A stretch of 64,000 bases of DNA, from contig CAWHCO010000001.1 in assembly GCA_963827865.1 (NCBI GenBank), positions 111,304-175,303 on the forward strand, read 5' to 3'. A program made the position numbers and the translations under genes. Source of the stretch: an uncultured bacterium (GTDB lineage: Bacteria > Actinomycetota > Acidimicrobiia > Spongiisociales > UBA4744). This document shows, piece by piece, positions 32,280 through 40,004 of this stretch; positions within the stretch are counted from its first letter, which is position 1, and each line of letters opens with the position of its first letter. The notes under the pieces are model-generated. The model was not told the DNA's origin, ran no database searches, and was given only the letters and a program-made list of their open reading frames with translations.

Positions 32280-32404
32280 TGGGCTCTCCGATCTTCGATC
32301 TCCGCCTCACCATGCCGAGGTCGTGGCACGGCACAGGTACCAGTTTAGGAGCGGGATCCGCACCGCGCTGGGCCGACCTCGATGCTGCAGTGGAATGCAG
32401 CCCA

Positions 32405-32423
32405 GGTGTCGGAGGCGGGACTT
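32405..32423 (-). repeat. tRNA-Leu 3'-end copy (outermost att scar)
   Basis: GGTGTCGGAGGCGGGACTT matches 39918-39936 at 18/19 positions, same orientation. Confidence 0.75.
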
Positions 32424-32712
32424 CGTGTGACAGCAATGACCCCGGATAGCGACTCCGCGACTGGGTTGCAGGCTGATCGACGGGTAATATCTGTAGAGGC
32501 GCGCCGCGGCGAGTAGGCCTGAGTGCGCTGGTTTCCCATGGACCAGCCAGCATTTCTCGCCGCCCAGGGGGCGGGGCTCCCGCGGTGCTCGGGAGGCTGG
32601 TGGGCCAGTAGGTGGTCACCGGGATAGCCGGTACTCGATTCCGGCGGCGGGAGCGAGAGAGCTACGACTGAATGTGACATCATGGGCCGATGCCGGACCA
32701 CTGCCGCCTATC

Positions 32713-33897
32713 GTGACCGAGCCCACTCCCGCCCTAGCCGTCGACCATTCCCTCGACACTGAGGGCCAAACCGGGCGTCTGGCCACTCTCGCTGGCGGGC
32801 ACGCAGTTCACGACACATTCACCGCATTCCTCCCCCCACTCCTGCCCCGGTTCGTCGAGAAGTTTCGCTGTCAAATACCGCTGCCGGTATCTTGTCCACG
32901 TTTCTTCAGATCCCCGGACTTCTCCAACCGGTGATCGGCCATCTCGCTGACCGCACAACCCTGCGATGGATCGTGGTTCTTGGCCCCGGGGTCACGGCGA
33001 CTGCAATGAGCCTGCTCGGGTGGGCTCCCAACTATGCCGTTCTGGCGCTGTTCCTGCTGATAGCGGGGCTGAGCCACGCCGCTTTCCACGCGACTGCTCC
33101 TGTTGCCGTCGGATATCTCTCAGGTCGGCAACTCGGTCGCGGCATGGGATTCTGGATGGTAGGTGGCGAACTGGGCCGCACCCTCGGCCCTCTCATCGTC
33201 GTCAGTGCCCTTGCGCTGATGTCGATGCGATCAATGGCGGTTCTGGCCATAGCCGGAATAGCGACATCGGCCGTGCTGCACCTCCGCCTGAAAGATGTCT
33301 CCTCTGCGGAGCAGGGGCGATGGGGAGCGGATTCACTGGCGGGCCGCCGTCAAGGCAATGCGCGGGATGATGCTGATCCTGGCCGGGCTCATCGTGGTGC
33401 GGAGCATGATGATGATGGCCGTCACCATCTTCCTCCCGATCTTCCTCACCAATGAGGGCACCAGCATCTGGCTGGCTGGAGCGGCGCTCTCAATAGTCGA
33501 GGCGGCCGGGATCGCCGGAGCCTTCGCCGGCGGATGGGTCAGCGACCACATCGGCAGAAGGGCTGTGCTCGTGTTTGGCCATATCGCTGCACCGACCGCG
33601 CTGCTGCTCTTCCTTGCCGCTGATGGCTGGGCACGGATCGCAATGCTTCCCGTCATCGGATTCACTCTGCTGGCGGTCCCACCAGTCTTGATGGCATTGG
33701 TCCAGGAACGATTCCCCGAAACCAGGGCACTCGCCAACGGAGTGTACCTATCGCTCAACTTCGCCATCCGCTCGCTGGCCGCCATCAGTTTTGGTGCGGT
33801 TGGCGATGCATTCGGTCTGTCGACGGCAATGCTGGTGGCTGCCTTCGCGACCTTCGGTGGGCTGCCGCTGATATGGCTGTTGTTCCAGCGTTCGTAG
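32713..33897 (+). CDS. MFS transporter (Fsr-like), frameshifts near 32868 and 33300
   Basis: GHAVHDTFTAFLPPLLP, LQPVIGHLADR, GGELGRTLGP, GWVSDHIGRR spread over three frames. Confidence 0.8.
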
Positions 33898-34041: not shown

Positions 34042-34761
34042 CTACTTCTCCATGCTCGGTTTCCACACCTTCCACACATTCCCGACGAGATCGGGTCCGG
34101 GTTTCAGAGTGAGATCGCCGGGCATCCAGCCGGCCGGTGTTGCCTCGCTGCCCTCGGACTCCCGCACCAGCTGGTAGGCGTTGATCTGGCGGATCGTCTC
34201 ATCGATGCGCCGCCCGACGGGTGGTGTGAGCACCTCCATCGCCTGGATGACACCGTCGGGATCAATGATGAACCGGCCGCGCATCTCGATGCCCTGGGTT
34301 TCGTCCCATACGCCGTATGCCCGTCCGATGTTGCCGGCCTGATCCGATGCCATGGCGAAGGCTATTCCGCCATCGACCATCTTCGTCAGCTCATGGTCGT
34401 TCCACATCTTGTGGACGAAATGGCTGTCGACACTGACCGAGATGACCTCGACGCCGAGTTCCTGTAGGTCTGCATACCTGTCGGCGACCGCCGACACTTC
34501 GGTTGCTCAAACGAAGGTGAAATCGCCTGGGTAGAAGCACAACAACAGCCATTTCCCGGCATAGTCCGCCAGTTTGACCTGCGTGAAGCCACCCTTGTGA
34601 TAGGCGGGGGCTGTGAAGTCAGGGGCCCGCTGCCCCACGGTTGCGCTCACATCAACCTCCTGTACTGCGTCGTCGGATCGACTCGGCTCAGAGACGTGCG
34701 AGGGCGTTTCGACCCCAACGGTTCCAGTGACCCGGCCACATCCGACTGCCTCATCGACCAT
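34042..34761 (-). CDS. prxU: Selenocysteine-containing peroxiredoxin (AhpC/PrxU type), in-frame TGA at 34509-34507
   Basis: FYPGDFTFV-TGA-ATE places TGA exactly at the peroxidatic Cys of FYPxDFTFVCPTE; frame continues into SVDSHFVH, RGRFIIDPDG; SD before ATG 34761. Confidence 0.92.
34479..34496 (-). promoter_or_regulatory. Bacterial SECIS element
   Basis: 10 nt after the UGA: stem UGUCGGC/GCCGACA with GGUC apical loop, the same loop and similar spacing as E. coli fdhF SECIS. Confidence 0.85.
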
Positions 34762-35154
34762 CGTTATCCTTCTCGGCAGTTGGTCCAAGGATAGCCAATC
34801 ACGGCGAGGCCCCAATTGTGATCTCGATGCACATCCGAGGCGGTGAGTCCCTTGTTGTTGGGAGCGCCCCGGCCGGGATTCCAGGTTCGTTGAGAGATGT
34901 AACTCGCGCACGTGTCGTCACAGTGAAGACGTACCCTTCGCGCGGCAAGTAGCCAGGCGGGAGGTGCGAGCGCTCCGGGCCAGAAGCCGCCCCGCCTTCG
35001 CGTGCCTCAAGGTCTGCGCCCAGGCCGCCGATACATTGGATACGTACAAAAGATACGCTCATGAGAGCGAACGCCTGGTTTTGGCACGGACCCCCCCGGG
35101 AAGTCCGGCCACCGAGGCTTGACGCGACCTCTCCCGAAGACGAAGAGGTCCATC

Positions 35155-36808: not shown

Positions 36809-36833
36809 TGTGACCTGGGGTTGGTGTCGGAGG
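36809..36833 (-). repeat. tRNA-Leu 3'-end copy (att scar) with arm-like motif
   Basis: GGTGTCGGAGG (36823-36833) identical to 39918-39928; preceded on + strand by TGTGACCTGGGGTT. Confidence 0.65.
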
Positions 36834-38107: not shown

Positions 38108-38145
38108 TGTACCTGAGGTTCGTGTCGGAGGGACGACTTCAACCC
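38108..38145 (-). repeat. tRNA-Leu 3'-end copy (att scar) with arm-like motif
   Basis: GTGTCGGAGGGACGACTTCAACCC (38122-38145) matches 39919-39942 at 21/24; preceded by TGTACCTGAGGTT. Confidence 0.8.
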
Positions 38146-39012: not shown

Positions 39013-39053
39013 TGTGCCTGGGGTTTCTTCGTGTCGGAGGAGCGATCCGAACC
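39013..39053 (-). repeat. tRNA-Leu 3'-end copy (att scar) with arm-like motif
   Basis: GTGTCGGAGGAGCGATCCGAACC (39031-39053) matches 39919-39941 at 18/23; preceded by TGTGCCTGGGGTT. Confidence 0.72.
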
Positions 39054-39133
39054 ATTTCCCCACGGGGCGGGCCTACGGACGAGTTCCTGGTAGCTGCGTG
39101 ATCGTTGACTTGAGCATGCTTGGCCCGACAGGA

Positions 39134-39787: not shown

Positions 39788-39919
39788 AGCTCGCAGCGAA
39801 AGGCCCCTCCACACACTGACCCGACACATGCTGCGGCCATCGAGACAGAAAGGGAATCGAGATCGGTTCTCGCTCGACGGACGAGTCCTCTCCTGCGCTC
39901 AGCTCGTGCAGTCTCGCGG

Positions 39920-40004
39920 TGTCGGAGGGGGGACTTGAACCCCCACGTCCTATTCGGGCACTAGGCCCTCAACCTAGCGCGTCTGCCTATTCCGCCACTC
40001 CGAC
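39920..40004 (-). tRNA. tRNA-Leu: tRNA-Leu, anticodon GAG (CCA not encoded)
   Basis: Acceptor stem GTCGGAG/CTCCGAC, D arm GGCGGAATAGGCAGAC, anticodon arm CTAGG-TTGAGGG-CCTAG, long variable arm, GGTTCAAGTCC T arm. Confidence 0.97.

Follow-up and report, generated by a model that had tools for sequence, protein, structure and literature searches.

A selenocysteine peroxiredoxin gene divided by standard ORF calling

The 64,000-nucleotide stretch of contig CAWHCO010000001.1 that was analyzed here (positions 111,304 to 175,303; hereafter the window) carries on its minus strand a prxU gene (34761–34042) which we regard, with a probability of roughly 0.95 and based on comparison of its sequence with those of its relatives, as an intact and genuine gene for a peroxiredoxin (Prx) of the PrxU family in which the peroxidatic cysteine has been replaced by selenocysteine (Sec). 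Standard open reading frame (ORF) calling divides the gene into ORFs of 134 amino acids (aa; 34507–34911) and 151 aa (34042–34497), and when the TGA codon is read as Sec a single protein of 239 aa is obtained from the ATG at 34761. The coding sequence of this long form extends over 239 codons from that ATG (34761–34759) to a TAG (34044–34042), and the TGA (34509–34507), which very probably encodes Sec, is the codon for residue 85, the peroxidatic residue of the motif PGDFTFVU, located between ...LLLCFYPGDFTFV and ATEVSAVADR. A spacer of 10 nucleotides (nt; 34506–34497), as read from the sequence, separates it from a hairpin at 34496–34479 that was assigned as the apical hairpin of a Sec insertion sequence (SECIS) based on the fold of a 42-nt segment and on covariation. 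The hairpin has a 7-bp stem and a GGUC loop (5' arm TGTCGGC, 34496–34490; loop GGTC, 34489–34486; 3' arm GCCGACA, 34485–34479), and a weak lower stem below it reaches 34468. In the annotation, the ORFs at 34507–34911 and 34042–34497 should be replaced by one selenoprotein gene, 34042–34761.

A sequence-only reading of the window had proposed a Sec peroxiredoxin with a SECIS element, split in two by ORF calling, and this proposal was borne out both by the match of the protein to an equivalog-level PrxU model and by the Sec machinery found in the genome. The interval it gave is that of the true long ORF and each element that it described lies where it was placed, including the TGA at the site of the peroxidatic Cys (FYPGDFTFV-U-ATE, 34509–34507) and, on the minus strand, the 7-bp stem with its GGUC loop that begins 10 nt past the TGA.

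The long form matched the NCBIfam model NF040737 (peroxi_PrxU) at 377 bits, where the cut-off is 270; this equivalog-level model bears the description thioredoxin-dependent peroxiredoxin. The match spans positions 2–232 of the 233 in the profile, and the curated model thus already takes in the N-terminal extension that is discussed below. A short form of 202 aa that begins at an internal start codon scored 370.8 bits, and a six-frame search of the genome with the same model returned the same result for the window gene. Pfam matches of the 239-aa protein were to AhpC-TSA (2.9e-39), Redoxin and 1-cysPrx_C, and the top sequence matches in the PDB were typical 2-Cys enzymes of the AhpC/Prx1 type, including Prx2 and, at 9.9e-46, 1WE0. 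The RGRFIIDPDG block with the active-site Arg (R161, R163) was invariant across the aligned long forms, and the core of a monomer model from AlphaFold2 (AF2) had predicted local distance difference test (pLDDT) values mostly of 80–98, with a predicted template modelling score (pTM) of 0.81. By these sequence comparisons the assignment of the window gene is straightforward, as a predicted ordinary orthologue of the already curated PrxU selenoprotein family; since that family is catalogued, the finding is mainly an annotation correction.

Conservation of the TGA codon and of the SECIS hairpin

In order to compare the gene across bacteria, one genome per GTDB species was scanned for orthologues, which gave 80 loci at 68–84% identity. 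The scan loci together with the prxU copies of the window genome (G000), of two congeners (G001 and G002) and of a genome from another genus (G005) provided 83 analyzable loci. TGA was present at the Sec codon in all 83 of them, across more than 10 phyla, with the scan loci belonging to the Chloroflexota, Acidobacteriota, Methylomirabilota, Gemmatimonadota, Actinomycetota, Pseudomonadota, Thermodesulfobacteriota, Synergistota, Spirochaetota, Calditrichota, Bacteroidota, Planctomycetota and Bacillota. The range of the family is thus much wider than its classical description (Chloroflexota, Acidobacteriota, Methylomirabilota, Gemmatimonadota, Pseudomonadota and Synergistota among others), and the view of the sequence-only reading that Sec peroxiredoxins are found mainly in anaerobic Firmicutes and Deltaproteobacteria did not hold, with the closest members being from Chloroflexota, Acidobacteriota, Methylomirabilota, Pseudomonadota and others. 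The TGA and the hairpin were also identical in five Logan assemblies that are independent of each other and derive from five sequencing runs (L112–L116), and an assembly error can thus be dismissed as the source of the TGA. Near-identical contigs occur in the runs SRR8557488, SRR8556601, SRR9700626 and SRR9700627.

The 42 nt counted from the UGA were predicted to fold at −17.2 kcal/mol (z = −3.2), and one of 200 shuffled sequences folded as well. The fold of a 66-nt context of the hairpin region was unexceptional (z = 0.24); the informative evidence is confined to the 42-nt segment and the comparative data. In an alignment of the 83 sequences, 93.5% of the stem cells were paired, versus 28–78% in controls in which the register was slid. 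The covariation score was 0.270 versus 0.085 for shuffled alignments, with none of 500 shuffles reaching 0.270. Pair 24–33, which joins the synonymous third positions of a Ser codon and an Ala codon, was GC in 60 sequences, AU in 18, CG in three and UA in two and was unpaired in none, and pair 21–36 was GC in 42, AU in 17, UA in nine, CG in one and GU in two. Close relatives with a Cys form have TGC at the Sec codon, and where the codon is TGC (L122, L124–L126) the hairpin has decayed. One of these, L122 (a contig of Logan ERR7015390), is a recent Sec-to-Cys convert in which the codon is TGC, the SECIS hairpin has decayed and the N-terminal Cys arm is intact, and would be a useful natural control for the function of that arm. 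These comparisons support the designation of the hairpin as a functional-looking bacterial SECIS that appears to be maintained by selection, and the comparative evidence (TGA in 83 of 83 loci and the covariation of the stem) is a stronger argument than the folding energy. An Rfam search of the hairpin matched no bacterial SECIS family, the sole match being a chance one to an sRNA family at 13 bits, and was uninformative given that Rfam is without a general bacterial SECIS model.

Selenocysteine machinery of the window genome

The window genome is a metagenome-assembled genome (MAG) of 1.96 Mb in 9 contigs that is 79% complete. A search for Sec machinery, which the sequence-only reading had called for, identified all of its components: a tRNA-Sec (76.9 bits on RF01852; called as SeC(tca) by ARAGORN), SelA (358 bits), a SelB wing domain (68 bits) adjoining SelA, and SelD (385 bits; C9:98921–99850, L011). 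SelD itself contains Sec: an in-frame TGA occupies the site that corresponds to E. coli Cys17 (LTGYSHGSG-U-ACKLSPDEL). In addition, an FdhA-like gene at C8:22177–24072 (TIGR01591, 670 bits) contains two TGA codons in frame and is probably a Sec-FdhA.

Five WhiB genes place the genome in the Actinomycetota, and among named actinobacterial PrxU sequences the nearest come from Acidimicrobiales/Acidimicrobiia (L066 and L073). The description of the host as a Sec-using actinomycete was therefore right as to the phylum, but members of the Acidimicrobiia do not count as actinomycetes if the term is used narrowly. Among 20 genomes of the GTDB family, SelA was found in 18, including 13 of 13 high-quality genomes, and PrxU in four. 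From these distributions we take the Sec trait to be ancestral in the family and PrxU to be an accessory selenoprotein there. Sec use in the Acidimicrobiia has already been reported, for Actinomarina (preprint 10.64898/2026.04.03.716425), and PrxU, the Sec-containing SelD and the probable Sec-FdhA add to this recent recognition, with an uncultured lineage of small genome size that seemingly invests in Sec-dependent peroxide defence.

Other readings of the TGA codon

Two other readings of the TGA were considered. One is that the TGA is a true stop, with the locus being a pseudogene, the product of an assembly error, or a pair of genes for two small proteins. Such a reading would agree with the splitting of the gene by standard ORF calling, and the MAG, besides being only 79% complete, has indel errors near prxU, which counts against an intact gene: the assembly is not error-free in the adjacent MFS_1 gene, which has 1-nt indels. 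Opposed to this are the occurrence of TGA in every orthologue and in the five independent assemblies, the strong purifying selection on both halves of the gene (68–84% identity across phyla), the covarying downstream hairpin and the complete Sec machinery, and we consider a true stop to be very improbable. The other reading is that UGA has been reassigned genome-wide to Trp or Gly (codes 4 and 25), for which the many public homologue predictions with W at the Sec site (FVWATE) might be cited; others of these predictions are shortened to 151 aa. However, the W stems from gene callers having tried code 4, and the homologous DNA that we analyzed has TGA. Reassignment is also difficult to reconcile with a G+C-rich Actinomycetota genome that has a dedicated tRNA-Sec(UCA), SelA and SelB, with the TGC of close relatives, and with the location of the codon at the catalytic Cys site, where Trp or Gly would abolish activity, and is in our judgment even less credible than a true stop. 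The true-stop reading can be regarded as effectively refuted by TGA conservation, purifying selection, covariation and the Sec machinery, leaving a Sec-encoding TGA as the reading that we adopt.

The MFS_1 gene mentioned above (32674–33897, plus strand) is convergent with prxU and is broken across several frames by 1-nt indels at 32662, 32863 and 33304. It is intact (407 aa) in a public contig that is 99.1% identical (L112), and the indels are likely to be either long-read assembly errors or the mark of a fresh pseudogene.

An N-terminal arm and two in-frame starts

Upstream of the Prx domain the frame is open in 78 of the 83 loci and encodes M-x5-8-G-C-A-R-[VP]-T-G-x-V-x-G-E, with the core motif G-C-A-R-[VP]-T-G being present in the same number and the upstream extension amounting to 32–41 codons in all loci. 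In the window the arm motif is G7-C8-G9-R10-V11-T12-G13 (34743–34723), with Cys8 encoded by TGT (34740–34738) within MVDEAVGCGRVTG, and is joined to the Prx domain by a variable, low-complexity linker (residues 14–37, 34722–34651). Cys8 was invariant among 75 aligned long forms (75/75), residues G7, R10 and G13 were at least 90% conserved, and the 20–25 residues after the motif were variable and of low complexity. The third codon positions of the motif vary freely (GGN, TGY, GCN, ACN) and its Arg alternates between CGN and AGR codons, and this free synonymous change indicates that it is the protein that is under selection, rather than an RNA or DNA element. A six-frame translation of the window genome contained the arm motif only in prxU and in a partial second copy. 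The latter (C2:21030–21290) is 92.3% identical to window positions 34572–34832, comprises about 70 nt upstream of the ATG together with the entire N-terminal arm, and is truncated where the contig ends. It represents a paralogue or else the allele of another strain that was collapsed into the bin.

Both ends of the arm are marked by translation signals. Ahead of the upstream ATG a Shine–Dalgarno (SD)-like motif was identified in 73 of 75 loci versus a background of 16%, and in the window it is AAGGA (34771–34767), 5 nt ahead of the ATG at 34761. The internal start is conserved in all 83 loci (ATG in 76, GTG in seven), each time with an SD-like motif, and a strong SD was present in 78 of the 83 compared with 4.6% at control in-frame positions. 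In the window the internal SD, GGAGG (34660–34656), is 5 nt ahead of a GTG (34650–34648) from which the 202-aa short form would be made. These two conserved in-frame pairs of SD and start codon suggest, from the nucleotide sequence, that isoforms of 239 aa and 202 aa may both be produced. No description of an N-terminal Cys arm with nested starts was found in the literature searched. Of all the features of the gene, only the arm and the nested starts are not obviously covered by that literature; both are apparently uncharacterized, are family-wide rather than specific to this locus, and pose family-level questions.

Candidate resolving thiols

Alignment of the window protein with Amphibacillus AhpC (1WE0) matched EATPAGW with EVCPAKW, and the site of the canonical C-terminal resolving Cys is thereby occupied by Thr208 (codon 34140–34138). 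The absence of a C-terminal resolving Cys in a VCP motif, which the sequence-only reading had noted and this alignment confirms, sets the protein apart from the typical 2-Cys enzymes. From the anatomy of the gene and established Sec decoding, SelB with Sec-tRNA(Sec) would bind the hairpin at 34496–34479 during translation and Sec would be inserted at the UGA. By homology, Sec85 would then attack a hydroperoxide to form a selenenic acid, which would be resolved by a thiol, with final reduction by thioredoxin. Given that the C-terminal resolving Cys is absent, the most likely resolving thiol, in a tentative assignment from sequence that we would put at somewhat under even odds, is the invariant Cys8, carried by the flexible N-terminal arm that the long isoform has. 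This candidate, an N-terminal Cys as the sequence-only reading had suggested, is attractive because a Cys on an N-terminal arm would replace the one lost from the C-terminal arm. Otherwise, the resolver may be Cys75 (codon 34539–34537, in LLC-FYPGDF), a family-specific Cys 10 residues ahead of Sec that was likewise invariant in the 75 long forms, or the reductant itself. The gene neighbourhoods of 79 loci contained no frequent neighbour pointing to a dedicated reductant. The neighbours included KatG (7/79), a NifB/X-like protein (7/79) and a MinD-like Fe–S ATPase (6/79), and the adjacency to KatG is consistent with a role in peroxide defence.

These features can be combined into a fuller proposal, which we rate as less probable than the assignment of Cys8 and, taken as a whole, rather unlikely: that PrxU constitutes a distinct mechanistic subclass of AhpC/Prx1 enzymes with two starts. 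In the long isoform, an arm of 32–41 residues would carry Cys8 (in G-C-x-R-[VP]-T-G) as a tethered resolving or relay thiol, a Cys8–Sec85 selenenylsulfide would stand in for the lost C-terminal Cys, the short form would be armless, and the ratio of long to short isoforms could tune the reactivity of the oligomer.

Several observations weigh against a functional role for the arm. In the AF2 model the arm had pLDDT values below 50 at residues 1–9 and 17–35, and its only secondary structure was a weak beta-bridge at residues 14–15. The PrxU of Eubacterium acidaminophilum is reportedly a short form of 203 aa with Sec at position 47 (U47), and these values presumably correspond to translation from the internal start. 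Two Cys-form relatives (L124 and L125) have neither the arm nor a C-terminal Cys, which implies that the arm thiol is dispensable for the function of the fold; among the four Cys forms the arm was kept in one (L122) and missing in three, numbers too few for a correlation between Sec and the arm. Such observations might be taken to mean that only the short form matters, with the GTG at 34650 as the start of a 202-aa 1-Sec peroxiredoxin and with the upstream stretch being little translated or non-catalytic. Also in keeping with this are the conservation of the internal ATG or GTG and its SD in every locus, the perfect GGAGG 5 nt before the GTG in the window as opposed to only AAGGA before the ATG, and the absence of the canonical arm motif from five of the 83 loci, among which are the Acidimicrobiia loci L066 and L073 and, as a variant, the Clostridiaceae locus L104, where the Sec is U47 when counted from the internal Met, as in the numbering reported for the characterized enzyme. 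Conversely, an untranslated stretch would not be expected to be conserved as amino acids with synonymous changes and switches between CGN and AGR codons, or to retain Cys8 in 75 of 75 long forms. In 73 of 75 loci the arm moreover comes with a separate ATG and SD, its frame is free of stops in 78 of 83, and the curated NCBIfam model takes it in. On balance we consider it improbable that the short form is the only one of consequence, and retain the reading in which both isoforms may be made.

Genomic context of prxU

The prxU gene lies in a variable segment that is bounded by a tRNA-Leu(GAG) gene (40004–39918, minus strand; identified by ARAGORN), a putative integration target, and by a distal copy of the 3' end of this tRNA, an att-like scar (32405–32423, plus strand), that was found by repeat search (families D1, D2 and D11) and matches 39918–39936 at 18 of 19 positions. 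The repeat search also identified inner copies at 36823–36833, 38122–38145 and 39031–39054, giving four partial copies of the tRNA-Leu(GAG) 3' end, all in the same orientation and all downstream of the 3' end of the tRNA. A direct search for the 3' end that allowed up to 3 mismatches over 24 nt returned only the tRNA itself, and it was the repeat search that brought out the shorter or diverged copies. The near-identical contig L112 diverges from the window in precisely the region of the outermost copy (window 32289–32587). Integrase families were absent from the six ORFs scanned (at least 147 aa) between 32424 and 39917, and the G+C content of the segment was unremarkable (0.60 versus ~0.63 nearby).

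The flanks of prxU are not syntenic with those in G001, G002 and G005. Adjoining the variable segment is a gene for an H+-translocating pyrophosphatase (H+-PPase; 31760–29430, minus strand) which is ~51% identical to the PPase of the other genomes of the family, congeners included, and is the sole PPase copy that was found in the window MAG. A xenologous origin or membership of a different PPase subtype may account for this divergence, and because this left-flank gene is non-orthologous to the PPase of the relatives, no empty site can be demonstrated. In the PrxU tree the window protein grouped with that of G005 (support 100/94), and those of the congeners G001 and G002 with L066 and L073 (support 97/88). 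Approximately unbiased (AU) tests rejected neither a single actinobacterial PrxU clade (p = 0.216) nor a same-genus clade (p = 0.186). In G005 prxU lies directly downstream of a tRNA-Glu(ttc) (L128, C7 8453–8528), and in both G005 and G002 (L129, C46 4154–4328) it is ~3.5–4 kb from a tRNA-Glu(ctc)/tRNA-Gln(ctg) pair.

The suggestion that prxU was acquired within an att-bounded module has evidence on both sides. The tRNA-Leu 3'-end copies are real, the distribution of PrxU is patchy (4 of 20 genomes) and the flanks are non-syntenic; against it are the integrase that was not found in the scanned ORFs, the unremarkable G+C content and the AU test, in which a single actinobacterial PrxU clade was not rejected (p = 0.216). 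Acquisition of prxU with a tRNA-Leu-associated module is plausible but unproven.

Comparison with known systems

The fdhF-type SECIS of E. coli resembles the window hairpin in lying about 10–11 nt past the UGA, in having an apical GGUC loop and in being located inside the coding sequence. In contrast to it, only the 7-bp apical stem is conserved in the PrxU family and no bulged U was identified there, the predicted lower stem of the window hairpin has no conserved counterpart at other loci, and some members of the family have an AGUU loop.

The protein has its fold in common with the typical 2-Cys enzymes of the AhpC/Prx1 type (Amphibacillus xylanus AhpC (1WE0), Salmonella AhpC and human Prx2), and is roughly 45% identical to 1WE0 as estimated by eye on the alignment. 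The active-site Pro, Thr and Arg and the context of the C-terminal arm (xxPAxW) are also common to both. The window PrxU differs in having Sec for the peroxidatic Cys and Thr208 for the resolving Cys of the VCP motif, and in the addition of an N-terminal arm with the invariant Cys8 and of the invariant Cys75 in strand beta3, at a site where AhpC has a non-Cys residue (Val in 1WE0).

The closest known system is the PrxU of Eubacterium (Peptoclostridium) acidaminophilum (Sohling et al. 2001, Biol Chem 382:979, as cited in PMC13188914 and PMC9312934), and reviews that cite this work list Prx (TxxU) as an experimentally verified bacterial selenoprotein (PMC13188914, PMC9312934). Like the window gene, it has an AhpC/Prx1-type fold, a PxxxTxxU motif with UGA at the peroxidatic position and a SECIS hairpin directly downstream, and is without a C-terminal resolving Cys. 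The window gene differs from it in its host, an uncultured Actinomycetota (Acidimicrobiia) MAG and not a Gram-positive anaerobe, in its GTG internal start and in its location in a tRNA-Leu-associated variable segment. Finally, unlike that enzyme, which is said to be a short form, the window gene, like most members of the family, additionally encodes an N-terminal arm that carries a Cys.

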